Shown here in pieces: positions 3,997 to 62,900 of a DNA stretch of 64,000 nucleotides (position 1 is its first letter; every line of letters starts with the position of its first letter). Below the pieces are notes generated by a model. The model was not told the origin of the DNA, did no database searches, and worked only from the letters and a program-made list of their open reading frames with translations. This stretch comes from Amoebophrya sp. A120. Lineage: Eukaryota > Protista > Dinoflagellata. The stretch is from contig CAJINV010000014.1 of the NCBI GenBank assembly GCA_905178155.1, positions 1,691,984 through 1,755,983 on the forward strand, given 5' to 3'. Position numbers and translations under genes: made by a program.

Positions 3997-6900
3997 CTAC
4001 AACGCTTCTCTTGGGCAAGCGATTTCATTTTTCCAAAAATGAAATACACCATTGCGTCCACCATCTTTATGCTTATCAGTACTGTCTTGGTCTCCTGCAG
4101 CAGGACTTTCTTCTGCTTTTACCTTCTGGAGGCACGATTGTTTCGTGTTCGAGCTCAACAAACCAGCGGCGAGGTCATTCTTCAACAACCTGTAGAAGTT
4201 TCTTTCCGGAATTTTTTCGACGACCTTCTCCCCATATTTTGCCTTCGCGTTGTCCACAGTATGCGTTAGAAATGCGTCTTCATCTGCTCGCGGTCTGGAA
4301 AGCTGTACTGAATGCAATTGCCGACTGCATCAAAACTGCGCAGCCAAGTTCCAGTATGGTAGGTTTTCATCCCCCGCCGCTTCCGGGGGCTCTGCCTCGG
4401 CAGCACCGCACCATAAAGATAGAAACTGAGTTTATTTTGCGTGACATGCGACTGCGAGCGGACAGTTGCTCTTCGTGGACTCGCAACAACTTCACAGAGC
4501 TCAGATTCCAATCAAGTGTACTAGACATCAATCAAAGGTACTCGATGCAGACTTCCAGACCTCGCAGATTTGGACACAAGAACATTTATTCCACTGCCTA
4601 CACGTCCACTTGGCGCAACAAGTGTATTGTCGGGTACGGTGCCCGGAGGACGTTATGAATCTGTCAGGATTGAAATCGTCAAAGTTGAAATGGTTTGTCA
4701 TGCATAAAATGCAAGGCATGAAGTGCCTGTCTTGCTGGGATGGCAAGTGAGGCAGATTGCGAGCCTATTTAGGGTTTGGGATAGAGCTGCTAAAGGAGCA
4801 TGACAAAAGCACCCTTCTGTGCCCAAACAGCATGACAAATTGGATTTCGGTACTCCACAAATTTGCCATGCGCAGCTTGGAAATTGGTCTTCCAAGAACT
4901 GGTATCCATTTTATGCATGGCAAATTATTTCAACTTTGTTGATTTCAAACCTGACGCTTCCATAGACGTAGTTCGGGCCGTAGTGGTCCTGGTCCTCGTC
5001 GTCAACGAAGGAAATCGTGTCTTCAGCATCTCCTCGTCCTGTCATGCGAGAGCACGACCCCCGCTCTCGGGAACTACTACTACACCTCCCGGTTTTATTG
5101 GTCGCAGTAGATGAGGAGTCTTGAATGAGGGAGCTGCCATCAAGTTTCTTCAACGAGGAGCCGAGTGCTGTGCTAGAAAAAGCAGCTTGGGCTTCGCGTT
5201 CTAGCAGTAGTTCCGCAGAAGCAGAAATATCCTGATTCAGCTGGAACGTGGCCATCTTTTGCTGCCGGGAAAAAAAGGGCGGCCTTCCCGCTATTGGTGG
5301 TGTTGTAGTCCTCCTTAAGAAGGTTCTCGTTGCAGTGGCCCCCGTGCCCTCTTCCTTCTCTTCTTGCTGTAGGTTATTCCTGCAGGAGCGCGAAGGCGCC
5401 ACTTCTTTTTCTAATGCGAGCCCACTGCCTCTGCCACAGGCCTCGCCCTGGTCCTCTCGTTGTATCCCTGGCCCACCATCATGCGCAGATGAAGGTGCTG
5501 CACGGCTGCGCTCTCGTGTCAGCACCGATCCTGCATCATGTCGAGAACAAGGAGGTCGACGCGGCCGACGGCAGCTTTTGCGTCCGTTCGACGAGTAGAA
5601 CCGCAGGACGTCAAGGTCACGCAAAGCAGAAGCTTTAGATTTAGTATTTTCAACACCAGCAGCTCGTTGATTTCCTCCTACCTCCACCCTGCTAGAAGCA
5701 AGCTCATCAAGAGTTTTCATTGCCTTGTAGTCCTCTCCATCAGCGGCCAGCAGAAGCCCCTCGCTGAGATCCAGCCCCGGTAACTGACCTCCGGCAGAAG
5801 TAGCTGCACCCCAGCTACAAGAAGCCTCATCCACGTGAAGATGCGGGTTGCTTTTTCTGCTAGGTTTGCTTCGCAGAAAAGCCTCTTCTTCGTTTGGACA
5901 GGATGGGTGGAGCACTTCTGCATTGCCGATCGAGCGAGTGCTCTTCATGTTGTGGCCTGCACTCGCAGTGGTCGTGTGCGGATTTTTTGTTTTCACCTCC
6001 TGGCTTTGGACCTTTTCCTCGACTTGCCGTGCCCGCGTCCAGTCGGCGTTTCCATGGCTGTAGACGTTGTCACCTCCTTTTCTACCACAGTCGAGCACAT
6101 AGTCCGCGCAGCTGTAGCCATTGTGCACCGCCTTCGGGTGAAACAGCACCAGTTGCACTGGCTTCTTGTTTCTTTCACTTTCGACGTCTGGAGGTGGAGG
6201 ACCCTTGCACGACGCAGAAGTGCCTGTCGTAGCGTTCGCGCGGCCGTTTCCAGTCGTGTACGTTGAATCACCGGCTGCAGAACGTGACTTCCCGTCTGCT
6301 CTGGCCGTCGAGAGTTGATTTAGCCCACGCCGGTCGTCCAAGAGCGCGACCATCTCCTCCACCTCCTCCTCAACGGCTTGCTCCAGGCACGACGCAGCAC
6401 GGTAGAAGTCGTAGTAGTCTTGGAGAAACTCAGCATTGGTCAGAACGATCAGGGTAGAGTGGAATAAATTCCTACCGCAGGCGGGGGACGGGGAGGATAC
6501 GGTGGAATTATCCCGTACTAGTAGTTCCTCTCGTCGTGATGTATAATCGTCAGCCAGAACTGCGCTCTTGTTACTTTCGAATTCGACAGGAGCCACGATA
6601 CCGCTGCTTGTCTGCTCCTCGAGGTGCAGCTTTTCACTCTCCTGTCCTCGAGGTGGTCCTCCCGGAAAATAAGATCCACGGCCGGCCGCGTTTTGGCCGA
6701 GTAGAGCACCACTATCTTCAAACAACTCCAACAGGCGCAGCTCTTGCTTCAGGAACTGACACAACTCAGCCACTGTGCTGCCGCCGAAAAGCGCGATCCG
6801 CAATTTCTGCCTGTCCACGAGAGGTTTGGCGAAGGGACAGATATTCTTCCCAATCACCCACTTTTCAACCCAGTTCCACGTGCGGCGGAGGGCAAGTTGA

Positions 6901-10002: not shown

Positions 10003-13000
10003 TTATCGACCACCGCAATTTCCGGCACTCAGCCCGGCCGCGTCGCGAATGCCTGCGGGGCACATCAAGCATATGGAAGCGCTAGGTTAGTAGAAGTCCA
10101 CAAATAAGTAATTGGACAAACACAAATGATATACAACCTTCCCGAGGCACAGAGAAACTGTCTTGTGGAGCAGTCCGAAGTAAAGGCCGTCAGGTGAAGC
10201 CCGTACAAGGCGGGTACTTAGAAGTAGAAAGGACGTGTACCACGATACAAGAAGTCGTTTTTTGGCTTGGAGCACGCAAATCCATGACAAATTGGATTTG
10301 CGTGTATGAACGTGCAAAATGCAAAAGGGGTCAACCTAAACAGAGAAGCTTTTTCGTTGTTTGGGCAAAAAAGCTTTTCACTTTCGGGCGTATTTGCCGG
10401 CACCAGCTGCCCCTTCTCCGCGCGATATTGGATCGAGTTGCGCGTGTTAGGTTGCGCAAAAACAAGACTGGTTGTCGTGTTCCAGGTGGTCGCAGGCCTT
10501 GCGCAGTGCCACAGCTGGTGCGATCCTGCAGCGCGCATCTGCGTGTGGTGCGGGAACTTAAAGACGCAACTCGCTGGGCGGTTGGGATGACGCATCTCAC
10601 TCGTGGCGCGCCAGCTGTGCCTCTCAATCAAGTTAAGCGCGATGGCCACGGCAGTTGCATCAGCCTCCTGATCTGATTTTCGAAGCGCCCTCTCGCAGAG
10701 ACCGGCCAGCCCAATCTACCGCAAAGCAGCTCCAGCGAGCTCCCTTGCGGAGTTGCTCCGCGGGCTGCCGGGGAAATGTCCAGAGCTATTCTCGGACGCG
10801 AGCCAGAGTGCATCCACATGCGGAAAAGGGTTAATCCTGGCCCGGGGTTCGGACATCCCGGAGCTTGCCCGACACGATGTAGCAGAGGTCTCACCTCTCC
10901 CTTCCCCGTTCGCCGAAAGCCGCTCAATGAGAAGAATCTTCTCACTTTGGCGATTTTTTTGCCGGATTTTGCCAAAACTTCGCCAAATAAAATCCGGGTT
11001 TTTGGCGAAGTTTTGGCAAAACCCGGCAAAAAAATCCCCAAAGTCAGAAGCTTCTTCTCCTCGAGCGGCATTCGGCGAAGAAGGAAAGGAGGCGAGAAAT
11101 GTCGGCTCCAATGTGTCGCGCAAGCTCCGTGATCGGCGTGAGCCCCTGGCCAGGATAAGCGCCTTCCCACATGCGGATGCGACCTGTATTGTGTCCGGAG
11201 ATAATCCTGGACACTCTCAAGGAGCAATTTCGCGCGGGTGCTTTCTGGAATTGTTTTGCGGCAGACTGGGCGGCGCGGTCTCTGCGCATAGCATTTTCGA
11301 GTGTTAGCAAACGCTGGCGCGCCTCCAGCTGCCAGCTCCTTGAGAAACACAGTCGGCGCGCCTCGGCGGAGGTGTGTCACGCAAATCCATGACAAATTGG
11401 ATTTGCGTGCTCCAAAGATCATTTGATGTCCACACGCCCCGCTTAGAAATTAATTCGCGGTCCAACTGGATCGTGTTATGTGTTGCTTCTCCGTTCATTT
11501 GCAAATTTCCAACCCGACACTTCCATAGCGCACCACTCGTCTACTTCGCGTCGAAGATTGGTACACCGTTCCGCGTCAGGGTCTGCGAGTAAGCACGCTT
11601 CGTATGCATTGCAAGTATGTAGTTCGGGTCTAACAACTTTTGTCTTATACTAAAATGTCGATTTTTGCATGACCGACAAAGGCAGCGCCTTTTAGTCCTG
11701 TCGCACGAGGATAGTAGCGTGCGGCTTCTAGTCCGCACTACGTATTTCAGTATCAGATGAAAACGTTCGAAATTATAAAACTTGTCATGCTACTTCTTGG
11801 CTGCCGCTGCCCGCCTTCAAAAGAACTCAGAGTGTCTGAGTCTGACTGGTCCAAGCCCGGTCATCATTACAAGTTTCCAGTCCCGGACACATCTCCACTA
11901 GGTACTTCCTGCGCCGCCACGATGTTCGCACTTCCAAGGAGCACTGCTGCGCACCATATGCATTGCAAACATATTTTTTGGGGCTGGAAGTCCTCGCGCA
12001 AGACTAGTGTGAATAACACAAACTGTGACTCTACAAAAAATCACTGCAGAGGGGGGACGCGACGAGCTCTTCGTGGCCATGCATTACAGAGCTCTCCACA
12101 GTTGTCACACCAGGATGACAAAACATCTCGCGGCAATCTTCCAGACCGAGACACGTTTACTCCGGTTGATACGCCGTTGGTCCTTCAAAGTTGCTTTTCC
12201 AATCCAGGAAAAAACAACCATCCCCATCCATTTTTTGCATTACAAATAGTGGACTTTATGCATGTTTTGCATGACAAATTGGATGGGGATAGGTGTTTTT
12301 TCCTGGATATTTGCCCAAAAGTTTCCAAACCACGCATCCCGTTGAAAGGCATCCCCACTGGATGGTCGAACTGCAGGGAACTGCGCAATACAAATCTCGA
12401 AGATTTTCCTCCCTCGCTGTAGGTGTAGCGCAGGTTAGAAAGGACAAATGACGTCATGCTCATGTGCGATGTGCTATCTTCATATTCATCATTTCTGTAT
12501 ACTTACAACAATTTTTACACTCGCCAAAACGCGGCTAGAAGTGCCTGTGATGGGAATGTCATGTGTGTTGAAATTGTTCGTGTAAATGCAAATCTGCCTG
12601 ACGACTCTGGTGTGGGGGCCTCGTTTTTCATCAAGATACCATGCCATGGAGTTTTTGGAATTGGTGAAGTCCCTTCATCTAAATCAAAAATTCCCCCTCC
12701 GCATATTCCAAACGAATGCGACATACAATACCAAGGGACTACAGACAATAAATCCTAAAGATGAGCGTGGGTAAATCAGAATGTAAATGCTTAGGCATGG
12801 CGTCCTACTCCTAGCTTGGCAACTTGCTGTCCTTCGAGCCAAAGAGGATTTTTATAGGAATCGCCTGCATCCAGTAAATGCGGCGAAGACCACCTCAGAA
12901 GCCCCCTGTTTTCTTGAAAGACGGAGCTGATCATTTATTCTTGTGCACACAGATTACGCTCGGCAACACGATAAAGGACGCATATCAGTATGCCGAGCGG

Positions 13001-16000
13001 GAAATAATTTTCCTCACGATACTTTCTTTCCGTTATAGACAGCATCGTGCATCACGTTAAGAAAGTCCAATGCAAGAGCATGTCCGGTACCGGTGAAAGC
13101 CCTGACAGATTTGCGAAGCCCACCGGGATCGGGCGCCAGGACATGCGGGATTGTATTGAAAAAGAATCTCCTGTCATTGGAAAACCCGTACATGCGGGAT
13201 TGGATTTGAACGAGATTCGCATGTACGTCGTCCGTGTTTTCTCCCGTCGCCAACATGGGCCACTCGAGTACAATTTTCAGTGCGTTTCCGGGTTCGTTTC
13301 TGCTATGCGGAGTAAAAACAAAGCCCATACTAGTGCGACAGAGCCTTCTTGGTCTCATGGTCGAGATGGAACTCTGCTACAAAAATCCAGAAGCTTTCAG
13401 TCCCAGGCACGAGAAGTCGGCTAACATGAAATGTAGTTGCCTTGTTGTTGCACCTAGCTGATGCAGATGCTGCAGCTCCATCACATGCCATTGCCAGCCC
13501 GCTTTTAAACAAATAGATACATTCGGGATATTTACGGTAGAGCATGATCAAAACAAGTTTCCAAATGGCAAATGCGAGGAGCAGTTGAAGCCGCATGTTG
13601 AGCAGAGCAGGATATATCGTGATCATGATTCAAATTTGCACGTCAAAGCTGGGTTTTATTTGGGCACGTTTTTACGCCGGGAACCCGCATCGCTGTCGCT
13701 TCTGCCTTTTCCGTGACGACCCTCCTCTGCTACCTCCCTGCCCGCTACTGGCGACAGCCTCCAGCGGAAAATTGCTTTCCGGCACGCGGGGCACCGGAAA
13801 TGTACCAGGCACTTCGGCGGGTCCGGACTGGATAAAGGAAAATGGGAGAATTAGTCCTCGTATCCGGTCCAAAGTCGAACCGTGTGTGACCATTGCCACA
13901 GCCTCCAGCTCCACCCCGTCGACGTATCCTGTGCAAAAGTATCGTGCTCGTATTGCAATCATGCAAATCTTTTTCTTTTATCAGCATTACACATGTTATT
14001 TCTCATGCTTAATGCATTTATACGAATACGATACTTCTGCAGTTCATACGACGTCCTCGGCCACCATTCCTGTCGCTTTCTTATCCCGTGCGGACTCCAC
14101 CGCGACTTCGAGCTGCAACGCGGCAGACGAGGGCCTGGTGAACGATGCGTCGTCGCTAGCTCCTTCGGAGTTCTTGTTGAGGGCGTCGCGGCTGCCGAGA
14201 TGAACGTGGTGGCCCGGCGGCTGCTTCACGACTTCCTCGTCCTCGCGCTGCTCGTTTACTTGCGCAGCACCTTCACCTTCCGACAGGCGAGCGCGGTCCT
14301 CACGGTCCCGCTGTAGCTTCCTCCGGTAATGTATGGAGGCCACGTTAGGGTCGAAGTCGACAAAGTTGAAAATGAAATTACTAGAATATGCAACGCAGAG
14401 AGTGACTCTATGGGACGCAACGGGGCAGGAGATTATAGTCCTGCTGAGGACCAAGAGCTGCTGGGCTGCTGACTGGCATGACAGAACGAAGCCCGCTTGC
14501 CCTAAACAGCATGACAGAGTTGCTTGGGGTACTAGGGAGAGTTGTCATGCGCTGACTAGAAACTATTGGTCCAAGAAGTGGTGTCGTTTTTATGCGTCGC
14601 AAATTATTATAACCAAGTTGATGACTTCAAACCTGACACTCCCATATAATGCTCCCCGTAAAACCGCTCGTCCTCGTCTTCGTCCTCAACATCGTCAAGA
14701 TTCGCGTATGGCAGCTTGCTCACAGGTTGCAAAAATCTCAAGCGTTACAATTATAAAAACTGTGATGCAAAGAAGTGCATCATTCATGATCACTCCTGGC
14801 GGCCTACTCTCCCAAGAATACGTGCGAGGACAATTTCTGCTGGAGCCTGAAACTTCACTACAGATACAGCGAAGTTTGTAATGCGGAAAGCGCAAGAACG
14901 CTTTGCATGTGCATGCTCCTTATGCTCATCATGCAAGGCAAAAAAATCCAGATTGGCTTGTGACGTTTAAGCTTGCAAGAAATCCTGAGAAGGTGATATC
15001 ACGATCGAGCTGCGTTTTCCAGACAACTTTATTGCAGACGATTCTTCAACAGGAGTCGCTACCTCCTCGTCTAGTGAGTCTCGTACTTGCCGCCCTCCAG
15101 CACCCCCGCGCTCTGCAGTTCCGGTACTACCCAAGGAACTTCTGCTTCTTGTGGCATCGACTTCAATTGCAGAGGCGGAAGCAGCACTAGAAAACCCTGC
15201 AGCTGCTGGTGCTTTCTGCTTCTGCAGTTTCAGCGTATCGGCTTCCCCTACCGCGACCTCCGCGGGTAACGTCCGGAGCGCCCCCGGGGAAATTTTGGGC
15301 ATCACCCCGACCAGATCGGGGGCCTTCAACTTGTTTCCTGGCTTCGCTTCCTCCTCCGAAGCCGTCGGCTCGAAGATTTCTTTCGGGAGGTCGGGTTGGT
15401 TCTGCAAATTTAGGATCCTTTTCCGCGCCTCGTCGTCGCTAGCCTTTTCCCGCACCGCGGCCACCAGCGAATAGGGGGCAGCCCAGGTCAAGTCTGTCAC
15501 GTCCTCCTCCTCTTCGTTTGTTTCAACAGCTGCCTTGTCCTCACTTTCTGCAGCTTCCCGCCCCACCGTCTCGCGTCGTCGTTCCGTGTATCTAGTGGAA
15601 ACATGTCTGGGTCACCAGGAAACTTGTGATGCGAAATTCTACTGGAAAATGCTTGGACCGCTTGTGTCGAGTGCAACCAAGCATGATCGCAGGTTTTATT
15701 CAGAACGCCGACGACCTCCTCATGCGACGTGGCGTGGATGACAATAAATTGCGGAAATCACCCATATCAAGTTAGGCAAAATCTGGAATCACGTTTACCA
15801 TTGGAATCAAGTTAATGGAATCAGGTTTGCTACGGGATCGCGTTTGCCGAATCAAGTTGATTCAGCTGAAAAGAAACAACTTTAGGCAACGCAAGCTCTA
15901 CTTACAACCCAAACGAACGCCGGGCGGCCCCAACGGCCCGCCGGAATCCATGACGCGCCCAGCCGACGAAGGAGCCGGCGCACGGGAGCAACGGGAACCA

Positions 16001-19000
16001 CGGCGGGGCAGTAGCACAACAACAAACGCGGGAAAGGCGCGGGGGCGCATTGGCGCAACAACGAGAAGAGAAAGGCCAGAAACCCCAAACCCTACTAGAC
16101 CCCAAACCCTAAACCCAGACTCTGCTAACTTGATTCCATTAACTTGATTCCATTGCAAACTTGATTCTACTAACGTGATTCCAAGTTGATAACTTGATTT
16201 GGAATGTAACCATAAATTGCGTTGCTACAACTAATCACATGCAACACAGCGGCTGAGTTTCCTAAAATGCAAGCCAAGAACAAGCTCGACAAGCTATTGC
16301 CAACTTTCGATGATCCAGACCCAGACGAATTTGCAGTTGCTACCGTGAAGGACGACGAAGATGAGACGCCGCGTATGCATTGCAAATATCGATCTGGGTC
16401 TGGATCTGTGATGCGAGTCCTGGAGTAGGTCAGTGAGATGACCTGGAGTGAATGTATACGAGCTGCCATTTTTTTGTCGTCTCTGAAGCAGCTACTAGTA
16501 GTTGATTTTTGCCATGCGACGTTCATAATACGAGTGAATCTGTCATTAACATACGTCTCTCAAAACTTCAGGTGCTGCGTGTTATGTGATTATACAGGCG
16601 GGCGTTACTCGTACTCCGGGCGGATGCGACTATGTATCAGCTACACAAGCTTCCAGACCTCCCAGACATAGTTGCAATGCATACCGTCAGCACTCGCTGC
16701 ATTTGGAGGCGTCTGCCCGGCCATTTCGTCGTATTCTTCTCTTCCGCCGAGCATGAGGGCGACAAACGTTTCCAGCACGCGGGTGCCGAAGTCCATTTCC
16801 GATTCCGTATCTTCCCCTCCTCGGGAGGCACACATGGGCCACAAGGGAGACAGCTTTCGCATGGTATTGAGAGGGAAAATCCGCCCTCCCCATATCGAAA
16901 AGGTATGTTTCCGAAGATTTGTCTTGCTGATTTGAGACCACAAAAACAAATCACGTCTGTCTTGCAAGAAGACAACTCCACTGGCTCTGCCGCATTATGC
17001 AGGCGGTCTGTGATGCTGTTGGGACTACAGCATAGACATTTCTCATGGTAAGCGCCTAGGCCAAAACATCTCTACTCAGGCTTGGCAGGAGCCTGCAGTC
17101 CTCTACTGCAACACAAGCCTGATTCGTATACGCAAATCCAACATCAGAAACTTCCGTTTGATATGGGGAGGGGGGGATTTTCCTTGTGATATATGGCGCG
17201 GAACCCCTTGCAGCGTTCGCCTTCGGTATGGAGGTGTCAGGCTGGTGGATATAGACAAAGCTATAATCGAAAACACATGAAACCAGTCGCAGCGAGCTTA
17301 CGCACGCGGCGCTCCTGCATCACTAATTCAGTTTTTGTTTTCATATGACGAATGCAATACAACGCGCATCCAAAATGCGAAGCACTGGAACAGGAAACCG
17401 GGACTGTTTCAGTCAAGCCTGGCTAAGCTGCTCATGGGCGGGGATCATATTCAAGAGCATGACAGAAGCCCAGGCTGCTTTTGCTCGAGGCAGCGTGACA
17501 GATTGAACCTCCTTGTGCTGGTGGGCAAGATCTATCATGTGCCGCTCGGTGACGATCATCGTGGGTCCAATGACCATATATCTCGGTTTTATGCACGACC
17601 ATCGGAAATTCGTTGCTCCACAACTATGTCGAAATCCAACCTGACGGTCGCATACTCGGGGAGACGGTGGCACACGGCGGGCTCCTGGTGGTCCCCGTGC
17701 AGGCGATCGCACGGAAAGCCCGGCGATGTGTCGGCACTGGTGATTTTACGCAGGCTCGCCTCATCCACAGAAAGTGGCTTGCTGCTCATCTTGCCAGCAC
17801 GACCCTCGCCCGAGTCACTACTGGCGCTGCCCTCAAACAGCTCGCGAAGGGTCTGCAGCTCTTTGGAGATCGGGAGCCCTAGCTGTCCATCGTACGCCGC
17901 CGTCCTTTCATCCTCCGCGGCCTTTTTTTTCAGCTTGTCCTCTTCTCCCGCGGGCTCGCGTGGCGCCATAAGCTGCGCGTCTGCTAAGGCCTCCCGTAGC
18001 AAATTGCCAAGTCGCGACGCTTATCAAGTGCAAGCATTACTGGGTCTGGAAACCTGTAATGCTGTGTTGGGAATAGTGGATGCTCTGTAATGCACAGGCA
18101 AGCGTGAGAAATATCTGCGCTTCTTCGTGTTGCGTTTTTCGCATGACACAAGCTGCGTTTTTGCATGACAGGCAAAAAGGTCTCTTCTTGGACACGCGTC
18201 ACAAACTTTTTGGCCATGCCAGACATGCGGGACAAATCTCGCAATTTTCCAGACCCAGACACTCTTGCATTTGATAACGCTGGCGTGACCGGTAGACTTT
18301 CGACGCCATTGTAGCCGAGGAGGTTTTTCCAGGGGATGATTTGCGGCGTTGCAGTACTACGAGCGCCCTGGAGGTTGTTCCGCGTACCAGCAGGGTCCTC
18401 GGCGGCGCCAGTCTGCAAGGTACTGGACGATGCGGCGCCTGAAGATCCTGGTCCCGGTCCTGCAGAGTTCTTGCCTGAAGGTGGTCCTCCTGCTGCGTTC
18501 TCTTTACTTTTTCCGAACATCAGTACCGACGTGAGCATGGTCCGTAACAGAGGTGAGGTGAAAACGAGCTGGGGTGGCGGGTCGAAAAACGTCGCGCTCG
18601 CATTGTCTTCTTCGTCTTCCCCGGCGGCGCCAGCGCTCAGCACCTTCCCGAGCAGCGTGGCTTGCATGACGCCCTGGGGTGTCAGTGGGCTGTCGCGGTC
18701 GTTCCACAGTGCGGAGGGCGTCAGGGTGGTCTCCTCCTCCTCATTTTGGTTCTCCCGCGCGTTCCACTCGCTTTCGGCGTGCCGAATCAGGTAGATGGTG
18801 CGACGAAAGTGGCCTCTCGGTACCTGTTTTGTTACGGGCGTCGCACGCATGGTGCAGCGGCAACTGTCGATCAGCTTGACGCGCTCGCGGCTCGCCGTTG
18901 TGGGCCATTTCGGGTAGCCCCGCAGCCCGGGGTCCAGATCCAACAGGTAATCGCAGGCGTACACGCAGGTCGCCCGGGTCAGCAGACGGAGGTAGGGCTG

Positions 19001-20829: not shown

Positions 20830-22841
20830 TCACAGACCGCCTTCCCCGGGCCCTCCCGCGGGCGGGGCGAGGCCTCCCCCTGTATCTCCCCCGCCACCTC
20901 CGATGATCCACCGGGCGTTGCAGTCTCGGGCAATGTGGCCCAGTTGTCCGCACAAATTGCAGGCCCGCATGTCGCTGTGCAAACCGCGCTCCGCGTCCCG
21001 GATCTTCACGAGGCGATTGTGCTGGGAAGCCCGATTTTGGCGAAATTTGTCCAGGTCGAGGTCGGTCAGCTTGTTCGCGGTCGCTAGCGAAGTTGTGGAT
21101 GAACCACCCGTAGACGTAGAGTTGTTATTTATGTCCGTGCCTAGTTGCTTCCGTGCTGGATCGGTACTGGAGCTGCCCCAAGGTGTCGCCAGATTCGGGC
21201 ACTCCTTGGCAAAGTGTCCCTTTTCGCCGCACCGGTGGCACCGCGGTCCCATGGGACACTGCCGGACGTAGTGCCCGTACTCCCCGCAGTGATGGCACTT
21301 GATGTTGCTGAAGTCGTTTTGTTGCGTGTACGCGGGGACTTGCATATGAGAAGGTGTTCCAGACGAGCCCCCTGCAGCGCCATCGTACTGGTCCATACGA
21401 AGCTTGCTGCGCGGATGAACACCTCCACCCGGCGCAGCTACACCTGATGAGAAAGACGAACCTCCGCGGCCCGCACTCCTCGATCTTGAGCGACTACGAG
21501 CGCGGAAAGTTCTGCCGGCGTAGTGTCCTCTGTGGTCTTGACTGTCTTCCGAATCTGAGCCACTGTTTTTCAGGTCTTTATCTAACAATTCCCGGTCGAT
21601 GGTAAGGAGAGACGCGTGTTGTAGTTCTTCGGAAGCTCCTGCAGCGGACGTTCTACTGTTTTGCTCTCGTTGTATTTCATCGTTGGTCCTCCCCCGGCCC
21701 GCGTCGTCGCGATTGTTATCTTCCTCATCATGATAGAAGGTCGCCCCTGTGCCACGACCTTTCTTTGCGGATGTGACCATCTGCAGAAACGTTCCGAACT
21801 CGTGCTCGATTTTCTCGTAGAAGTCCACCCGAACCTATCACAGTGCGTGGCAACATACAACTCAAACTCTCGACGTGCCTCAGTAGCATTATCTCATCAA
21901 CAAAGGCATACACAACCACATGAAATTGTGCTGCACCTGGACCAAAGTTGCCGCTTTTGCATGACAAATTTCCGCGGGGGGATTAGAGCGCTCTTTAGGC
22001 GACGGCGCCACTGGTGGTGCACACCAAACTCCCACACAACACTAGTCAATTTCTTGCATGGCAAGAAATGCTGAGGGCAAACGAGGAAATGAGCTGTACC
22101 GGTTGTGCACTGTGATAGACTCCGCCTCTCCAGCCGTCTGAGCCGGTTGCTTTTTGCAGGTATCAGGTAAGGAACGTCCGACTCTATGTTTTCTGCGGCG
22201 TAGTACGTCGGTTTTCCGATCTGCTTGATGATACTCGCCAGGTAACCGGGGGTGCTGATGGTTGGGTAAAAGACATGCTCTCGCGGTATGCTCGGCTTTT
22301 TCTCCTTATTTTTCCCACCGGAGGACGACACTGTGGCGCCGGTGCTTTCTGACTTGTGCAGGCAGTCCGCGCAGTAGTAGCGATTTGTGTACCCATCCAC
22401 GGTATCAAATGTAAAAGTGTCTGGGTCTGGAAGATTCTGAGATTTGTCATGCATGTATTGCATGACCCAGGATGTCTGTAATGCACGCCCGCGCATCACA
22501 GATTTTGAGAGGGCTTCCTGATGCCTACTCCGCATGACAAACGCCCTCCCCGCGTAGCACAAACTAGACTCCTCTTGCTGGTCATGCAATACAGATTTTG
22601 CTAGAGTCCAAAGTTAGCATGACAAGTTCCAATCTTCCAGACCCAGACATTTTTACATTTGATACACGGCACCGCTGAAAAAGGGAATCTGTTCGAACTC
22701 TTCCTGGGTAAAGGGTTGCTTCTCGGGAAACACTTCATACTTGCAACCGGCGCAAAGCCGGGATTTAGTGCTTTGTGTCGTAGAGGGGCCGCGGCGGTCG
22801 TGACGTTCGTCCCCTTTGGCCGCTGATGTTGGCGTAGCCAT
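20830..22841 (-). CDS. Zinc-finger / CCHC zinc-knuckle nucleic-acid-binding protein (~485 aa; 2 elements)
   Basis: Three CX2CX4HX4C knuckles (CHHCGEYGHYVRQC, CHRCGEKGHFAKEC, CNLCGQLGHIARDC), an RS-rich tract, and N-terminal CAGC...CADC joined by element removal; spliced length 1458 nt. Confidence 0.85.
21836..22117. mobile_element. TIR introner, family F-like (282 bp)
   Basis: tatcacagtgc TIR; flanks GAACC/GACTC; joins ERRS|RVDFYE. Confidence 0.85.
22403..22664. mobile_element. TIR introner, family D (262 bp)
   Basis: ~34-bp near-perfect TIR tatcaaatgtaaaa-tgtctgggtctggaagatt; perfect TSD CACGG; joins SGAV|DGYTN. Confidence 0.95.
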
Positions 22842-35700: not shown

Positions 35701-35806
35701 TTCTTTGCCAGTGCAACCGACTTCTTTGCTAGTGCAACTTTTCGGAGCAGCCGACTTCTTTGCTAGTGCAACTTTTCGGAGCAGCCGACTTCTTTGCTAG
35801 TGCAAC
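35701..35806. repeat. Intergenic 34-bp tandem repeat (~2.6 units plus a partial copy)
   Basis: Unit gccgacttctttgctagtgcaacttttcggagca. Confidence 0.9.
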
Positions 35807-45800: not shown

Positions 45801-48800
45801 TCGAGCGAAGTGGAAAGAGGTAACAGCTTCTCTTGCAATGGTAGTTGCTTGCAGCTGAGGGGTGCTTTTGTTGTGGATAGTATCACCTTGTTGAAGAACT
45901 GCAGTACAGACAACTGGTTCAACGCCCCGAAACCCCCGGATTGGTGCTTCACGACAAATCTTCCGTCAGCGTTCTTCACCACGCCCTGCGTCTGCCGCGA
46001 AAACGGGTGATCGAGCAAAGCGATGTTCAAGCTCGGTCCGGTGTCGATTGTCAACGTCACCCCCGCCGCCTGTGCGGCTAACTGCGCGGACAAAGAGGGC
46101 GGCGTTGTGGTGGTTGTTGGTGTTGGGGTCACGCACCAGTCGAGATCCCCGTGCACTTTTTTGATCCTCGCCTGCGGGTCGAACTGCAACAGTTGCTCCG
46201 CCTCGATCGGACTCGTGACTTCGTAGAACTGGCAGCCGGTGAGAAAGCGCTCGTAGTTGCGGACACTGGTATGCTATCCTGTGCAAAAGTATCGCACTCG
46301 TAGTAATCGCAGTCATGCATTACAAATCTCGATCCCAAGGCAAAACAGCATGACAAACTCCATTTCTCATGCTGATTAAATTTGTCATGCGATTTCTACT
46401 AGTACGATACTTTTGCAATGCATATATGCTTCAAGTGCGGCCCGGTGGAGGTCATGGCGACGTTAGAGGCCGGGCTGAGAACCGAAACGTCGAGGTGCTT
46501 TTTCGGTTCCGTCACGCTCTGCAGATTTCTAGTACTGTCGGAGGAGGTACTAGCTGTGAAGACCTGCTGCGAATTATGCAGCAGTGACTGAGAAGATTCC
46601 GGCGCTTCTGCCCCTCCTGCAGGAGCCATTTGCTCCTCCTCTAGCGTAGTTTTTGTCCGTTCAATTACAGCTGCGTCCTCCTCTCGTTCCTCTAATCTTC
46701 GGACGCGGTGCGTCAGCTGCGCTGCTTGTTCGTGCAGCTGCAGCATAGCGTCGTCGAGGATAGTGTCTACCTCGAAATCCGACTTGCCGAAGTACGTTTT
46801 GAGACAATACCTCACTTCCGGTTCCATCAAAACCTGGTCGTCCACGTGGTCGGAGAGGAAGCGAAGAGAAGCTTGGTCCTCGGCTCTGTCATGCGGTACT
46901 GCTCCGACATTTCCATTTGAACTTGATGAAGAGAAAGAGTCTATATGTGACAAGGACGAGTCCACCTGTCCCTGCGCAGCAGTTTCGAGTAACAACATTT
47001 CCGCTTCTACATTTTCTCTCGAATCCAAGAAACGCTCCGCGGTGCTGGAGGTCGCCCCAGTGGCAAAACTGCCACTGCCGTTGTCCTGCTCAACATAGTT
47101 GTTCATACTCTCGGCCAGAATCCGCATTACGGACTTGATTCTTTGCCTCCGCTGCTTCTTGACGAAAGGTACATGAAGACTATCAGCAGCAGCTTCATGT
47201 TGACCACGAGCTTCTAGAGCTCGAGCTCCTCGTCCTGCGGTGGCATTATCGTTCCGGCCACTGGTCGTCTTTCCAATCAACTTCCTCGCTTTCCTTCTCA
47301 TCAGTAACCTCCTCAGGCTGTGTGTCGCGTACCTCACAGGACTCGGGATCGAACCCATCGTCCGGCCGTCGAAGTTGCAGGCCCACGCCACGGTCAAAAA
47401 CTCCCCAGCAGTGTATTTCTCTAATGCGGTTTCCGCAGCGGTGTCGATCGCGTACGGCTGTAAAATTTGCGTCAGTTCGACCACACTACTTAGCGACAAG
47501 CTGAATACCTTCTTCACCAAAAGCAAGTCGTTTTGTCGCAACTTCTCATCCGCCGCACTGCTCGTGGGGCAGTCGAGATTCAAGATGGTTAAAACCTTCT
47601 TCGCCTCGTGCAGAAAGGCGGAAAAGTCCTCCATTCTGCTCACCGTCCCGTCGGAAAACGCTTTGCGGGCTAGGGCCATTAGCTGGCTGTCGTCTTGCTT
47701 CGTGACTTGGGAAGCATGGGGGAAGGGATTGTTACTCGCTGCCTTCATTTTCGTGACCATTTCGGTTCCTTGGGGGACCGACATCGGGATCACCGGTGCG
47801 GGAACCATAGCTTGGAGGTTTCGTGTTGAAGACGGTGCAGAATTAGCTCGTCCTTGAGCAGTAGCTTCCGGAACTTCTGTTGGAAAATCAGCTCGGCGTG
47901 GCGAGGAAGATGCTAATAAACCAGCAGCCTGCTCCTGCTCCGGCGCATCATGCTGTCGACTTTGCTCCACAACGGCCTCTGATGTTCTTCTCCTTTCCCT
48001 TCTATTCGCACTGCAGCCGGACTCGAAATTTCTGTTCCGCAGCGCTTCTACCAGGGGCGCTGTAAATTCCAATTGCTCTAAGCACTGATCGTTGTTCACG
48101 TCCTTCAAGTTGTACAAAACTCCGCAGACATTCCCGGATGAACTCTCGCCCTCCACCGTAAACCCGCCACTGCTGATGTACAGTGCGCAAAACTCCGACT
48201 CTTTCATACACCCAGTCGTCCCGCAGGTGCTGCTCTTCGAGCATGCAGACTCAAATTGTTCGTACATGCTATTCGAAGTTGTATCCGCCGAGCTGGAAGT
48301 TGAATAGGACAGACACTCTGCGGCTGTCACTTTCTCGTCGTTATTGACGTTCATCGCGGCGAAGACGGCCTTCTGAGACTCGAAACTCAAACTCGTGGTG
48401 GTACTGCTGATTTGGGTCGGCGATGTGATGTACGCGGAAGTGAAGAAAGGACACGAGGCTGAGGCTCCTGCTGAATAGATACCTCCGTCAGCAGCTACCC
48501 CGGCAGACGCAGCTACAGAAGGCGCTGCTATTTCCACTGGTATGATCCCGGTATCCATTTGAAATATCCTCACGAATTCCTGCTCTGATATGTAGCCATT
48601 CCGGTCCAAATCTACCAATTTCAAAATCTTCCGCTTCACCATCCGCTCCCCGTACAAATCGCTCATCACGGTCTCTTTCAACATCGTCTTTTCCTTCAAA
48701 ACTTTCATCATGACGTCGATGTGGATCTGCGTTTTGTAGAGGTAGTTGGTCCTGTGCAAAAGCTCCTTGATGTTTAAAAGGTCTAATGTGTTGGAGGTCG

Positions 48801-51037
48801 TTCCCGATCCGGACGATGATGAGCCGCTGCCCGAAGAAGAAGTGCCACTCGTCGCTGCAGCTCCCGCTGTTGCAAGCATCTTCTGAATCACCGGCGATTC
48901 GTTTTTCGACCTTTCCAACACAGTGGAAAAACAGATCCCAAAAGTCTGCAGCTCAGACGTCGATAGGTACTCACTATTATCACAATCGTGGCTGTGGAAC
49001 CAAGAAAACACCTTCAATCTGTTTGCGTTGGTGATGTCCAGCATTACCGCGTTTGGATCTGCCGCCGGGACGGAGCCGGCAAAGCCAGCCGGTGTGGTCG
49101 TCGTCGTCGCGGGGGCGTAGAGAACCGGGATTCCGAGCTGCTCAAGGAGGTAGGACCCGACCAGGTCCTTGTGGCAACTGTATCTTTTCTCCGGGTTGCA
49201 GACGTCTAGCAACGATTTGTACATCAAATGCGAGTACTCCAACTTCGCGTCATCCAGCGCCTCCGCTGCGATTGTCAACAAATAATCCGTCCGCATGCAA
49301 CTCCCCGTAACACTGCTCGCACACGTCGCGTTTGCCGGCGCGGGTTTCGGAGTAGCTTTTGGATCAGGTAAAAGCCCTGTTGGTAGAACCTCTCCGGCCG
49401 GAAGCAAGGTTTCGCAAATCGACGTTGTATCGTGACACAGATGTATTGATCTGTGCAGTGCCAGCGGCGTGTCCGGCGTCACGGGTCCGTAGCCGGTTGT
49501 TTGACTTTCTTGCGACTGCAGCAATTTCGTCTGCACGGTGACGTTCGTGTAGTTGAAAATCAACATTCCCCCCATCGCGGTCGCGAACTTCACCAACAAA
49601 CTGCTGGTCGCGAAATTCTGCTTCTGTTCGCTCACTGTCGCAGAAGCGACAACAGTGGTCGACGGTAGACTGTTTCCCTGCCCGAGATGCCCTACACCGG
49701 AGACGAAATAATTTCCGAACATATCCATTTGCTTCTTCACAGACACGATTTCTTTCAGCGTCACCGGGCCTTGCAAAGTCGGGATAAGGAAGGACTGCAC
49801 GTTCTGCAGCTCATGTTCCGTCATATCGTAGACACAATTCAACAATTCCTCGTATCCCTGACAAGTCCGGATCGCCTGCGCCAGCTGGATCCTCCCGCCA
49901 TTGTTCACGTCTTCCAACTCTCCGGTGGCCATTTTGGTATTGGTGATTTCTGTCGTCTTTGCTTTCACTGCCTGGAGCTGGCGTCTTTTGAAGTGTTCTA
50001 CTGAAAATTTTTGTGGTTCTTCATCCGCACTTTCGTACTCCACGGACACACTAGAACCTCCAACTACTGCAGCGCTTCCGCTTTCTCCTCCTGCTGCTGC
50101 ACTCCTGCTGCTTTCCAAGAGTCGCCTTCTTTCCCGGATAAACCCGGTGCTTTCTGTGCTCGTCTTTCCATCATCGGCGAGGAAAACCGGTTTGAAGTTT
50201 TTCGTGTACTCGTTCGCCAACAACCCAGAAATAAACGAAACCGCCGCCATCAGGACGATGACGACGAAAGTTAAGTACAGAATCTGGCGGAGGAAGATAC
50301 CCTCCCATCGAAGGCGTTTTTCCGCCTCGGCGGCGAGGGCTAGCTCGGAGACGGAAACGGCACCCGTGTTCTCCGGGTCCCAGAGCTTGAGGACGGTTTT
50401 TACCTGATAGATAAACAAAGGGAGAGTTGATAAGTCGTACAAGGGTCAATTACTACATGCACAGCTTCTAACATGCCACATCATGCACGATGCAAGTGGC
50501 GTTGGTGCTGGCGGGCCACAACCACGAGCCAACAGCAGCAAACGGAAACGCCGAGTATTTCTAGGAAAACCTGCGCGCATGTTATACCTTTTCTGGAAAG
50601 CTGTTGTAGTCCAAATCGGCGGAGTTGTTCTTCACAGCGAGTTTCATTTCCGCCAAGCGCTGCAACATTTCCTCTAGTTCTTCGCGATCCAACCCATCGC
50701 CATCTTCGTCCAATTTGTTCAAACTATCAACTGTAAAAGTGTCTGGGTCTGGAAGAATCCAACTTGTCATGCTGATTTTGGATTCTTTATTGCATGAGCA
50801 GCAAAGAGAGTCCAAGTTTTGCTACACGGAAAGAGCATCTGTCATGCGGTTGAGGCATCAGGAAGCCCTCACAAAATCTGTGATGCTAGGGCATGCATCA
50901 CAGACATCAGGAGTCTTCATGCAAAATGTGCATAACTGGCAATCTTCCAGACCCAGACATTTTTACATTTGATACAAACTGGACTTCAGCCATTCCGGAG
51001 CGTGCAGCTCCGCAATGTTCACCGCGGCTAAGGACAT
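36802..51037 (-). CDS. Giant EF-hand-like/Cys-rich single-pass membrane protein (~3590 aa; 14 TIR elements + 3 GT-AG introns)
   Basis: gccaccATG start at 51037; TM helix ILYLTFVVIVLMAAVSFISGLLA; loops DLDRNGYISEQEF, DVNNDQCLEQLEF and DPENTGAVSVSEL; GT-AG introns 50404-50587, 40506-40707 and ~39932-40220; spliced length 10767 nt is divisible by 3. Confidence 0.82.
37340..37555. mobile_element. TIR introner, family F (216 bp)
   Basis: Perfect 21-bp TIR tatgagagtgcacaactcccc; TSD TAGTC; joins YIET|TLGKQ. Confidence 0.95.
37603..37752. mobile_element. TIR introner, family B (150 bp)
   Basis: TSD TTAGC; joins NTLL|TMCYN. Confidence 0.93.
37805..37959. mobile_element. TIR introner, family C (155 bp)
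   Basis: Flanks TTGCA/TTGTA; reverse-orientation relative of 42578-42736; frame restored. Confidence 0.9.
37999..38149. mobile_element. TIR introner, family B (151 bp)
   Basis: TSD TGGTC; joins SPWT|SISNQW. Confidence 0.95.
38252..38405. mobile_element. TIR introner, family B-like (154 bp)
   Basis: Flanks GAAGT/GAACT; joins AAQF|AGSAT. Confidence 0.9.
38535..38714. mobile_element. TIR introner, family B-like, reversed orientation (180 bp)
   Basis: tatgcaatgcaaaag...tttgcaagggata; flanks GCTCC/GATCC; frame restored. Confidence 0.88.
38766..38927. mobile_element. TIR introner, family B (162 bp)
   Basis: TSD AATGC; joins FSRH|FTFYN. Confidence 0.95.
39033..39338. mobile_element. TIR introner, family A (306 bp)
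   Basis: Long TIR; TSD GGTCG; joins TNAT|LSADV. Confidence 0.95.
39397..39546. mobile_element. TIR introner, family B (150 bp)
   Basis: Flanks TGGAG/TGGCG; joins ATVA|TSPTS. Confidence 0.92.
42578..42736. mobile_element. TIR introner, family C (159 bp)
   Basis: aaatttcccgtaca TIR; TSD TTTGC; joins QQAQ|TLNPH. Confidence 0.95.
42958..43262. mobile_element. TIR introner, family A variant (305 bp)
   Basis: tatgaaa-cctcagaat TIR; TSD CAGCA; joins GSSAV|ITADM. Confidence 0.95.
43452..43687. mobile_element. TIR introner (236 bp) with tandem subterminal repeats
   Basis: ~40-bp TIR containing two ctcaactgttacat units; TSD CAACT; joins LTEL|ILTTY. Confidence 0.95.
46275..46424. mobile_element. TIR introner, family B (150 bp)
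   Basis: TSD TATGC; joins HLKH|TSVRNY, linking the 1347-aa and 872-aa ORFs. Confidence 0.95.
50725..50974. mobile_element. TIR introner, family D (250 bp)
   Basis: TSD CAAAC; joins LKSSL|NKLDED. Confidence 0.95.
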
Positions 51038-59918: not shown

Positions 59919-62900
59919 TTACACCGCCCTAACCAGCATCCTACTCTGCTTCGCCTTCAACCTGGCGTTCTGCAACCGCAGCGGATGTCCTCGCTTTTTC
60001 AACAACCCACACACCCGCGCTTGCTTGCACACCGCAGTCGGCCGGTCCGCGATGTGGGGCTCGAAGCACTCGACGTAGCAACTCTCCGGGATCGTCATGA
60101 TTTCCTCTTTTTCCAACAGACTGTGCGTGATGTTGTTTGTCAGGTAGCTAGTTGGCAGCACCGTGTTCATCAAAACTTCCCGTGTCCCGCCAACCAACCC
60201 GTTCTGGATTTTCTTCAACAATTTCAAAATCGTCTGCTCGCTGTTTAGCTCCGCGGTGTAGTACAAAACGGCGATGAGGTATGGGAGTGTCAGGTTTGAA
60301 ATCGTCAGAGTTGAAATGATTTGTCATGCATAAAATGCGATACAAAAACTGACTCTATTGCAGAGGACGCACGGGAGGCAGAGTATAGTCCTGGTAAGGG
60401 TCAAGCGTTGGACTGCTGACTAGCATGACAGAAGGCAGCTCCTTTGCCCTAAACCGGATGACAGACTCGCTTCCAGGACCGGGAAAATTTGTCATGCGAC
60501 GACTACAACTGTAGGTCTAACTGGTATCCGTTTTATGCATCGCAAATCATTTCAACTTTGACGATTTCAATCCTGACAGTTCCATATGAGGCACTTGGCT
60601 AATTCCTCATTGTCGTTCAGCCCGTCACTATCCAGATCCGTGCTGTCTATGGCGGCGTCCGCAATCTCCGTGGTTCCCCCCTGCGTCTTCACGTCCACGA
60701 TTTTCGCGCACTTTCCCGCCCAATCAAACTCCGTGCCGAAGTTGGGCATGGAGTTCAGAAATTGGTGATTCGACAACTCCTCAACGACGGTTCGGAGTTG
60801 TTGGAATTCGTTTGCTGTGAATTCGGCTTCCATCATGGCGGTGACATTTTTCAAGTTCACCTGCTCGGACATTGCATTCGTCGTTGACCCGTAGAGGTTC
60901 GTCAGTTCCGAATTCGTATCATCCGCAATGTTGTTGCCGCCGATCACAAGCATTTCGCGTTTCTTGAATTCCAACCTGTATTTGCAATCGAGCCCTGCCC
61001 GCTTCAAATTGTTCTTGTTCTTCTTCGACAAAGTTGGGAGCAGCATCGCTTCGTAGAACAACCTGCAGGAAGTAGACGCTGCGTCAGAATTATGTTGCGC
61101 AGAGCCTGTTGTTGAACTTGAAGTTGAGACTAGGCCTGTTGTACTGAACAACCCCTTCATAAACTCCACCTCCAATGGGAAGGTCGGCGTCCCGCCAACG
61201 GCTGCTAATGCAAGGTTGAAATTATACCACTGGATGGAGTAGGCGTCCATGTCCTTCTGCAGCAGTCCCATCGCGTTCTGCTTCGCCTCCCTGACCGCGG
61301 ATCGCATCAACAGTTTGTCGAACACGAAGTTGTTCATTTGCCTTATCTTATCCTGCTTCATCTTCTGTTTTCGGCACAGCGCGGGGTAATAGACTTTCTT
61401 CGCCCCGGAATTGTGGTAAAACTCCTTGTTCGAAGCCTTCGCGTTCGTTATGGACACCGTGTTCGTGTCCGCCGCTCCGTCGTCGTTCACGTCTTCGATC
61501 AAAACTAAATCGGACTCGATCCCATCCTCCGCAAGGCTGTCGCAGTCGAAGGTGTCCTCTATGAAGACGTCCACGCACCCAGTCGACCTTTTGTCGAAGA
61601 AGTTGAATAACACCGCCAGGTCCTCTTCGGGCAAGAAGTAATCCGACTTGGTCTTGTCGCATTTCTCGTGATCCAAGCAATTCGTGCTTCTTTCGTTCAA
61701 CCGCATGAGGAGTGAATTTTTCGCCTGCACTAACTCCGACTGGGATAACTTCGGTGGCTGGGTCTGGGTGCCGGTGGAGCTGGTGTAGACCTTCAAATCC
61801 TGAATGTCATCGATAAACGCGTCGGCAAGTTTGTCTTCCTGGTTGCTAGCAGAAATCGCCAAATCGAACATCCCCAGCAGTTGTTTACTGTTCTTCGCGG
61901 ATTTCTGCAGTAATTCCCTCTGCACAAACAGTTTGAACTTCTCGAAAGACAATTGCCAGGGTAAGCAGCCGCTGGACTTGAGAAAATAGCAGTCGTGTTT
62001 GTTGTAGAACGGGTGGTTTTTGGGCAACGCCTGCAAGTTTCCCGCCCCGTTCAATTCCGAGGGAATGATGGTGTCTTTTGTTCCGAGCTTTCGACCACGC
62101 AATAATGGGCCGTCGATGTGGAGGATTTGGTTCGTGTCGGACAGACGGCAGACGGGCTCAGGGTTGTAGTTTCTCCCGATACTGGTAGCTCCTTCAACCG
62201 TGGTTTTTGAAACAACTGCTGTTGGGAAGAAATCCAGTTGCAGCATCGCTTTTTCCGCGCAAGATCTTTCCACGCAGTTCATCACGTCGGGGATGCAGGA
62301 TTGGAGCACTTTCTCACTCGGTTCGCAAATTTTCTTCTCCCCAGGAGAAGACAAAAATCCCGCAAACACCTTTGGTAGCTCAAACAGCATCTCCGAGACG
62401 CAGAACGCAACCAATTCGTCGTCACTACTCGTCAACCGGTCCGGGTGCGCCGCACCGGCGGAGGTTTGCGCGGTTTTTGTGGTTTTCTTCACATAGGAAA
62501 TCGAATAGTAAGAGGACGCTTGGGTGATGGGGTAGGCGGTGGTGTTTCGTGCGTCGTTTTCTAGTGAGTCCAACATGGTTATGGCTTTGGATAAAGCGAT
62601 GGTCGCGTTAGAGCAGTGGGTGGCCAGGTTGGTGAATCTCTGCAGCTCGTCGTGGTAAAAAAAGTTCAGCGATCCGTGGGTTTCCCGTTGAAGAGTGGTC
62701 GGGGCGGTGGCCTGGATAGTTTACTTCTGTTGGTTCCACTAGTACGAGTTGTGATTGTGCAGTTTTGTTTTTTCGTACAAAAAACGGCACAACTAAAAGG
62801 AAAAAACATCAAACCAGCAGCAGGGACGAAATTTTGTTCTGTAACTGTATGTTGTCACTTCACAACTCTATACCATTTTTCCATCGATCTCTGCCATCTC

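Follow-up and report, generated by a model that had tools for sequence, protein, structure and literature searches.

A short motif repeated at preferred distances in TAT...ATA elements of Amoebophrya sp. A120 is a probable transposase-binding site

The mobilisation and splicing of introners, of which Amoebophrya has tens of thousands, are named as an open question in the available text of PMC7789003, where the families are treated as separate. In a 64,000-nt stretch of Amoebophrya sp. A120 (contig CAJINV010000014.1; hereafter the window), elements of several families carry the same short motif, raising the question of whether a single protein reads all of them. A preliminary description had proposed that GCAT(G/C/T)ACAAA, placed at 31–33-bp spacing, forms phased sites for one DNA-binding protein, a shared transposase or a host factor.

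That pattern is strongly over-represented: 39 strict matches are observed on both strands of the window against 0.6–1.4 expected under Markov models of orders 1–4, and 37 of them lie within elements, the exceptions being at 9236 and 63330. As a spelling it falls short, with both copies fitting in only four of the nine quoted pairs (whose distances are all exact), and the 11-bp motif GCATGACAAAT with tolerated variants is better. Copies were counted at a score of at least 12, and weak or decayed copies at a score of at least 8. GCATGACAAAT has 82 matches in the 13,329 bp of 44 elements and four in the 50,671 bp outside them, a 78-fold difference in density, so the motif is not equally frequent inside and outside. 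Exon, canonical intron and intergenic DNA (50.7 kb) yielded no enrichment over shuffled sequence (1–7 matches), and the three canonical-type introns of the window contain no copy. Both orientations are used, as had been described: 41 and 41 copies in the window and 25 and 28 in other loci, with no strand bias.

The motif carriers are TAT...ATA inverted-repeat elements flanked by a 5-bp target-site duplication (TSD). TAT pairs with TIR and TSD number 17, compared with 0–3 for seven control trinucleotides. Among the 80 ends of 40 seed elements, chosen for TAT/ATA ends and a perfect 5-bp TSD, position 4 is G or C in 78, and positions 11, 12 and 13 are A in 55, 64 and 67; the AAA run at 11–13 is missing from families A, E and F. 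Families were assigned by hand, BLAST clustering after N-masking having fragmented them and been discarded. All families have common termini and TSD length, the B/D and C1/C2 pairs align after motif masking, and E and F align end to end. The families are thus not unrelated, and their description as such, with dissimilar TIRs, was overstated. Left out of the element set were a truncated copy (L044), two degenerate copies (L037 and L062) and three doubtful elements (L053:574-1026, L055:4009-4208 and L055:4321-4670); an extra set comprised 12 metagenome loci of up to 5.3 kb carrying the same families.

That all families carry several copies, as had been described, holds for the consensus sequences of all nine multi-copy families, with 2–6 copies each, but 10 of the 24 singletons have none at a score of at least 12. 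Elements with a relative contain 15.6 motif copies per kb and singletons 2.1 (P=2e-7), whereas the comparison of motif density with TSD decay gives P=0.09 in the window alone; the motif decays in old element copies. Every copy in families G and H points one way. At element ends, a motif-like 11-mer (score at least 8) lies at offset 4 in 20 of 148 cases and at none of the other offsets from 1 to 14; at the consensus level, the inner TIR resembles the motif in the right ends of B and D only. The motif had also been placed in the loops of a foldback element's terminal hairpins. Each of the two hairpins does consist of a 12-bp stem with TGACAAAT as its loop, but they are a single identical 32-bp direct repeat within an older A-type element, and the motif there begins with C, not G.

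Table 1. Elements and host coding region in the window. Motif positions are those of the motif G within the element, with arrowheads for orientation; X1–X4 are RNA-like contigs.
Window position	Strand	Feature	Motif copies and joints
4654..4964		Family A, ~307 bp, long TIR, TSD GACGT	50<,145>,177>,218<,262>; pair 4798/4830
10072..11527		Old A-type element	Nested 1073-bp foldback insert between hairpin repeats 10273-10304 and 11378-11409
11603..11904		Element of the scanned set	
12202..12309		Family G, 108 bp, near-palindromic	Pair 12237/12269 at 32 bp
13925..14048		B-related element	Joint 13919>14049 skips length+5
14332..14646		Family A	Pair 14476/14509; joint 14326>14647 skips length+5
14707..14998		Old singleton	One motif copy; joined across in X1 and X3
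15589..16342		Old 754-bp element, internal inverted repeats	Joined across in X1-X4
16374..16683		C-like singleton, TSD decayed	Joined across
16865..17191		Singleton, TSD 4/5	Joined across; requires k>=1
17227..17654		A-like singleton, TSD 4/5	Joined across; requires k>=1
18022..18276		Family C1	7/7 motif copies decayed to score 8-12; 22-bp pair; joined across
21836..22117		E-like old element	Joined across
22403..22664		Family C2	Joined across
25632..26035		Old element	Motif-free at score >=12; joint in X4, possible only with k<=1
26083..26341		E-like singleton	Joined across in X4
26937..27198		Old G-like element	Joined across in X4; requires k>=1
28286..28651		Old element	Motif-free at score >=8; joined across in X4
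37340..37555		Family E	41<,80>,136<,176>
37603..37752		Family B, 150 bp	Pair 37644/37676
37805..37959		Family D (B-related)	Pair 37851/37883
37999..38149		Family B	
38252..38405		Singleton	Motif-free at score >=8; removal by length arithmetic on contigs and open frame
38535..38714		Singleton	One weak copy; removal by length arithmetic on contigs and open frame
38766..38927		Family B	Pair 38808/38839
39033..39338		Family A	
39397..39546		Family B	Pair 39439/39470
42578..42736		Family D, inverted relative to 37805	
42958..43262		Family A	
43452..43687		Family F	50<,88>,146<,186>, the E layout + 10 bp at each end
46275..46424		Family B	Pair 46317/46348; X1 record 1 runs 43688-46269 then 46425-46812, skip = length+5
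50725..50974		Family C2	
55613..55861		Family C2	
60280..60586		Family A	Pair 60423/60456
36950..50390	(-)	Host coding region	3469-codon open frame

The elements behave as introns. In the RNA-like contigs X1–X4, which come from one sample and whose RNA status was assigned by software guess, 14 of 15 joints among those listed skip the element plus 5 bp, the elements being removed with exactly one TSD. The long frame of the host coding region opens once two canonical-type introns and 13 elements are taken out, the latter together with one TSD each. The X5 contigs continue into elements; their joint table was swamped by repeat copies and the contig pieces alone were used, and raw RNA runs X8 and X9 (13 and 3 reads, nearly all partial) were left out. 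The 14 joints have one possible cut register in common (k=1 in Table 1), giving the intron N-TAT...ATA-NNNN, with 1 nt before TAT and 4 nt after ATA. In the 14 spliced elements the TAT/ATA ends have changed at 2 of 84 bases compared with 13 mismatches in 70 TSD bases (P=0.0008; 0.054 with the TSD count halved). A TGAC core as branch point was dropped because the motif has no strand bias.

The spacing of the motif was then counted by family. The eight 31–33-bp pairs first reported do not form a family-independent sample, as they come from A (three), B (four) and D (one), two lineages, and the single 22-bp pair thought to span two helical turns (18141/18163) measures 20 bp in five of the six copies of its family. 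The tandem 31–33-bp spacing itself holds up: it occurs in seven of nine families (P<=0.0003 for that window; 0.0005–0.02 allowing any window) and, with aligning families such as E and F merged, still in five of seven or five of six groups. Harsher counts weaken it. Merging A into B/D leaves four of six groups (P=0.005; 0.20 for any window), and taking single copies at random yields 3.7 of 8 (P=0.002; 0.065) or, merged, 2.4 of 6 (P=0.09; 0.94). Metagenome contigs carrying the same families have 7 of their 13 exact pairs at 31–33 bp, compared with 5 of 107 other loci; in viral contigs the pair was found at 11 loci with scattered spacings.

A second preferred distance, 46–50 bp, accompanies the first, and 22 of 30 adjacent centre-to-centre distances fall in one or the other. 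Counting a single family from each homology group puts 16 of 21 and 15 of 19 distances in the best two 5-bp windows, which none of 20,000 permutations reached. From the terminus to the first outward-pointing motif the distance is 40–41 or 48–51 bp in 42 of 56 copy ends (P=0.08–0.49 after allowing any window), and over this interval homologous families differ by indels of 9 bp (C1/C2) and 10 bp (E/F), which by their length are consistent with helical phasing. Distances of 32 and 49 bp do not lie on one helical face. The preference for 31–33 bp thus stands, by family and in other contigs, but phasing on a general 10.5-bp lattice was rejected as unproven (P=0.06 once the 31–33-bp pairs are removed). 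A 16-bp period scored highest; it is post hoc, arises because sums of the 32- and 48–49-bp distances yield it, and was given no weight.

The elements fit the published A120 introners (PMC7789003, PMC12130899), which according to the available text are likewise non-canonical introns with inverted and 3–5-nt direct repeats, an inverted repeat of TAT, 7 variable nt and AAA, and co-oriented genes. Dataset rows list TIR families of 305, 252–260, 106, 148, 160 and 278 bp, superfamily 'Unknown'. Families A, C, G, B/D and H are of similar length; the families were matched by length only. Whereas the text available from Farhat et al. (PMC7789003) describes variable splice positions and rejects general mobilisation by a transposase, the TSD here is uniformly 5 bp and the 14 joints share one possible register. 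TA..TA termini, close to the TAT..ATA found here, characterise IS3EU and GingerRoot, TIR elements of the integrase-like DDE clan, whose TSD is usually 6 bp (PMC10045372); membership in IS3EU was rejected on the 5-bp TSD, the 14 joints skipping length plus 5.

A closer parallel is offered by subterminal transposase-binding repeats. In the accessible parts of PMC1636448 (Lemi1/Emigrant) and PMC5499845 (Muta1, with CACTA, hAT and Sleeping Beauty cited there), copies of a short motif in both orientations occur internally as well as near the ends, they partly resemble the inner TIR, and their arrangement matters for the protein–DNA complex. The motif described here is confined to elements, occurs in both orientations and lies at set distances from the ends, and the motif-like 11-mers at offset 4 recall the Lemi1/Emigrant repeats that copy the inner TIR (PMC1636448, as far as its text was available). 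Unlike the repeats covered in those parts of the two papers, it shows two preferred distances, is common to six or more groups of divergent sequence and sits in elements that double as introns. The kind of feature is therefore known, and the novelty first claimed is narrowed to this instance, which appears undescribed: neither the motif nor its spacing is mentioned in the available text of Farhat et al. 2021 (PMC7789003) and Gozashti et al. 2025 (PMC12130899) or in the searched supplements.

We consider it probable, judging from the sequence, that GCATGACAAAT is the subterminal binding site of one shared transposase, repeated at preferred distances in non-autonomous TAT...ATA elements that are spliced as introns. 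The lack of strand bias, the decay in old copies and the absence from some spliced elements together argue for a transposase-binding site and not a splice signal. Transposase protomers would bind the sites cooperatively, the preferred distances allowing neighbouring protomers and an end-bound protomer to touch. Any sequence that keeps a TAT(G/C) end and a compatible layout of sites could then be copied, and one enzyme might serve many divergent families. After insertion the motif would be dispensable and decay, while the TAT/ATA ends would be retained, as the cut is likely positioned from them. Terminal-pattern scans of viral contigs and prokaryote genomes with C-, A- and B-type ends gave no match to an autonomous element or transposase.

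Descent alone offers an alternative: motif and spacing would both go back to a single ancestral repetitive element from which the families arose by deletion, with nothing constraining the distances today. The termini and TSD length common to all families agree with this, as do the B/D, C1/C2 and E/F alignments and the L053 pair, which lies in a short tandem duplication. Spacers of different families resemble each other slightly more than shuffled ones do (identity 7.1/20 compared with 5.9/20), and so may share remote common descent. Yet this identity has dropped to ~35% while motif positions are 72–99% conserved (a figure conditioned on the scan), spacer length is held at 31–33 bp while element lengths vary freely, and the end-proximal indels are 9 and 10 bp. 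Descent would account for the origin of the motif but not its retention, and we regard this alternative as unlikely.

It is quite unlikely that the binder is instead a host chromatin or transcription factor, for example with an AP2-type domain, recruited by the elements as a helper for mobilisation or for tolerance in genes. The GCATG core of the motif is reminiscent of apicomplexan AP2 sites, and two introns that look like GT-AG introns and lack TAT/ATA ends each contain an exact motif pair (L057 and L109). Moreover, the available text of Farhat et al. (PMC7789003) reports no transposase in A120. The motif-free canonical-type introns of the window and the decay in old elements speak against such a protein, and the lack of enrichment outside elements makes a host factor of the promoter type unlikely. 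Of the two binders first suggested, the shared transposase is thus favoured.

It is very unlikely that the motif acts in RNA, either as a splicing-factor site or by pairing so that the intron folds, and helps intron removal in this cell, for which a lack of U1 snRNA is reported. In favour of such a role, the elements are introns, opposite-orientation copies could pair, an element inserting both ways would require splice signals on either strand, and the GT-AG intron L057:2225-2328, whose removal lengthens a frame from 427 to 822 codons, retains an exact 32-bp pair. Against it, two elements are spliced with no motif at a score of at least 8 (28286-28651 and 38252-38405) and another with decayed copies only (18022-18276), the copies in G and H cannot pair because all point one way, there is no sense-strand bias, and it is the TAT/ATA ends that spliced elements keep. 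Just as improbable is a broader reading, in which one host-adopted protein would read the ~32/~49-bp motif grammar of all introner families, both mobilising elements without a conventional transposase and marking introns for U1-independent splicing at the fixed register; exact 32–33-bp pairs would then persist in GT-AG introns without transposon ends because this protein marks introns.

With a shared transposase as the preferred reading, the sharing of motif and layout among the families argues for one mobilising protein, and motif, terminus and spacing together provide a defined bait for that protein and a signature for the autonomous element. If the single register N-TAT...ATA-NNNN holds genome-wide, it would correct many gene models, and most of the reported variety in splice dinucleotides would reduce to target-site sequence under one rule.

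The minus strand of the window carries long reading frames interrupted by short inserts, as in eukaryotic DNA. A blind search for trinucleotide pairs with inverted ends and flanking direct repeats returned 17 for TAT versus 0–3 for each of seven control trinucleotides, and the duplication (TSD) at these TAT...ATA elements is 5 bp long. A scored search identified 32 elements in the window and zero in two shuffled 32-kb controls; relaxed searches and joints in RNA-like contigs enlarged the final set to 44 (13,329 bp). The 3′ part of one gene holds nine elements in 2.2 kb and the next 11 kb (to 50390) only four. Internal inverted repeats and short repeated units in a 754-bp element probably reflect a nested insertion. 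Two CCHC zinc-knuckle-like repeats were identified by eye in a host gene.

Contigs of four sequencing runs from a single sample (X1–X4, called RNA-like because their RNA status is a guess) join across elements, whereas those of a fifth run, X5, extend into them. The joints number at least 15, with four further joints beyond the 15 listed; 14 of the latter leave out an element together with exactly 5 further bases, and the remaining one spans a canonical CT..AC intron. In an X1 contig of 7,670 nt, positions 42572 and 43688 are separated by 400 nt, as predicted for three elements removed with one TSD each. Stop-free frames of 416 and 2,935 codons (3,469 when two canonical-type introns are also deleted) appear once the elements are deleted with one TSD each; deletion without a TSD copy does not open them. 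A mismatch between the two TSD copies pins the position of the joint: three joints require a register of k ≥ 1 and one requires k ≤ 1. Read on the sense strand, the sole register that fits 14/14 joints (window 13919–28651) has its cuts 1 nt upstream of TAT and 4 nt downstream of ATA. Under it, the intron comprises 1 nt of one TSD, TAT...ATA and 4 nt of the other, and begins with a GTATG-like N-TAT(G/C); across 42 elements its first base is A (15), G (14), C (8) or T (5). The inserts act as introns and, by their features, fit the A120 introners described in passages of PMC7789003, which call splice positions variable, whereas one register suits all 14 joints here. Element lengths, the only property compared, fit those of the introner families given in parts of PMC12130899.

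The strict motif GCAT(G/C/T)ACAAA occurs 39 times, against 0.6–1.4 expected; the fuller form, GCATGACAAAT, varies most at positions 5 and 9–11. At a score of ≥12, a matrix trained on in-element matches finds 82 matches in elements and 4 outside (1–7 outside in shuffles), a 78-fold density contrast, and the untrained strict motif agrees, with 37/39 inside elements. The preliminary description had placed the motif in the loop of terminal hairpins of a foldback element. The loop, TGACAAAT, does hold the motif, with C in place of the initial G, but the hairpins are two perfect 32-bp direct repeats, each with a 12-bp stem, around a 1073-bp foldback insert in an old A-type element; the repeat could be an unusually long duplication. 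Metagenome loci L033, L034, L039, L060, L089, L103, L107, L117 and L128 contain 10–26 near-copies of the motif and none or one TAT..ATA candidate; these are likely unrelated tandem repeats.

Coordinates of features in the window and in metagenome loci (L-numbers)
Feature	Location	Strand	Description
Old A-type element	window 10072-11527		host of the foldback insert
Direct repeats	window 10273-10304, 11378-11409		32 bp, flanking the foldback insert
Foldback arms	window 10855-10987, 11001-11133		
Inverted repeats	window 15801-16184		in the 754-bp element
CCHC zinc-knuckle-like repeats	window 21200-21310	-	host gene
Non-coding tandem repeat	window 35713-35814		three 34-bp units
3′ part of one gene	window 37340-39546		
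GT-AG-like intron without TAT/ATA ends or TSD	L057:2225-2328	+	exact motif pair, 32 bp; frame 427 to 822 codons on removal, good support
GT-AG-like intron without TAT/ATA ends or TSD	L109:271-383	-	exact motif pair, 33 bp; weak frame support
Motif pair in tandem duplication	L053:952-1000		32-bp period
Old G-like element	L053:761-1026		contains the duplication

Nine families with multiple copies (A, B, C1, C2, D–H) were built from the window and 12 metagenome loci (JACKZZ01 contigs) in which they recur at other sites. Families first regarded as unrelated all have TAT(G/C) ends and a 5-bp TSD; B/D and C1/C2 remain similar once motifs and ends are removed, and a global alignment was obtained for E/F. 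Cross-family spacers share a mean of 7.1/20 identical bases versus 5.9 in shuffles, which suggests that they are mostly diverged, not fully independent. All nine motif pair distances reported earlier are exact, but both copies match the strict pattern in only four of the pairs; the eight pairs at 31–33 bp belong to A (three copies), B (four) and D (one), and the 22-bp pair measures 20 bp in 5/6 copies.

The 31–33-bp spacing largely survives counting by family and weakens under harsher counting. A tandem pair at this distance is present in 7/9 family consensus sequences (null mean 1.1). Merging relatives leaves 5/7 or 5/6 (P≤0.0003 for this window, 0.013–0.021 for any 3-bp window), and merging A into B/D leaves 4/6 (P=0.005, or 0.20 for any window); with single copies drawn at random, P ranges from 0.002 to 0.09, or from 0.065 to 0.94 for any window. 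A metagenome scan that admitted distances of 15–45 bp and covered 7/64 parts of the collection placed 7/13 exact pairs in the 12 related loci at 31–33 bp, compared with 5/107 other loci; three of the seven fall outside known families. Regardless of orientation, 22/30 adjacent motif centers are 31–33 (12) or 46–50 bp (10) apart; with one family per homology group, the best two windows hold 16/21 and 15/19, matched by 0/20,000 permutations, in statistics for which mirror copies within TIRs are non-independent and the center offset was picked after viewing the data. At 42/56 copy ends, the distance from the terminus to the start of the first outward-pointing motif is 40–41 or 48–51 bp (7/9 by family, P=0.0025; any window 0.08). 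Between C1 and C2 this gap differs by 9 bp and between E and F by 10 bp; these are just two events, each close to one helical turn. The general 10.5-bp period once envisaged does not emerge (P=0.06 without the 31–33-bp pairs, P=0.12 for end distances). One motif pair, in L053, lies within a tandem duplication, a possible route to new pairs. Neutral common descent of motif and spacing, with family kinship in its favor, appears unlikely.

Recognition of the motif by a host DNA-binding helper seems slightly less probable again. Terminal-pattern scans of viral contigs and prokaryote genomes found no autonomous element, passages of PMC7789003 report no transposase in A120, and the exact pairs in two GT-AG-like introns count against a purely transposon role of the motif. 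On the other side, motif density is 15.6 per kb in elements with a relative versus 2.1 in singletons (P=2e-7), 10/24 of which lack the motif, and the association of motif with TSD decay has P=0.09 for window elements and P=0.004 for the full element set.

An RNA-level signal is the least probable reading, given that the motif favors neither strand (41 copies each way in the window; 25 sense and 28 antisense among loci whose direction could be inferred) and that families A and D have copies in either orientation, A within L037 itself, even if all window copies of A (4654, 14332, 39033, 42958, 60280) and all six of B share one orientation relative to host genes. Among removed elements, two are motif-free and a third has decayed copies only. 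Because, in addition, terminal trinucleotides of the 14 joined elements deviate from TAT/ATA at 2/84 bases while their TSD copies mismatch at 13/70, we infer a division of roles: the evidence points to the motif serving mobilization and the ends serving splicing.

Both the elements and, as a type of feature, subterminal binding repeats are already described in the literature. The motif was not found in main-text passages and searched supplement text of PMC7789003 and PMC12130899. A full-text search with GCATGACAAA gave no related work among the matches listed, judged by title, and literature on introner, subterminal and transposase topics gave no description of the motif among the matches listed. 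The cross-family motif with constrained spacing is real and apparently undescribed, on a smaller scale than first claimed.

The TA..TA ends recall IS3EU/GingerRoot, membership in which is ruled out because its TSD is usually 6 bp (PMC10045372, in part), not 5 bp. We favor, as probable, a single transposase of the 5-bp-duplication class that would recognize the TAT(G/C) ends and bind cooperatively to the internal motif copies, much as passages of PMC1636448 and PMC5499845 describe for Lemi1 acting on Emigrant and for Muta1 and its repeats. Site geometry would then determine which miniature elements are amplified.
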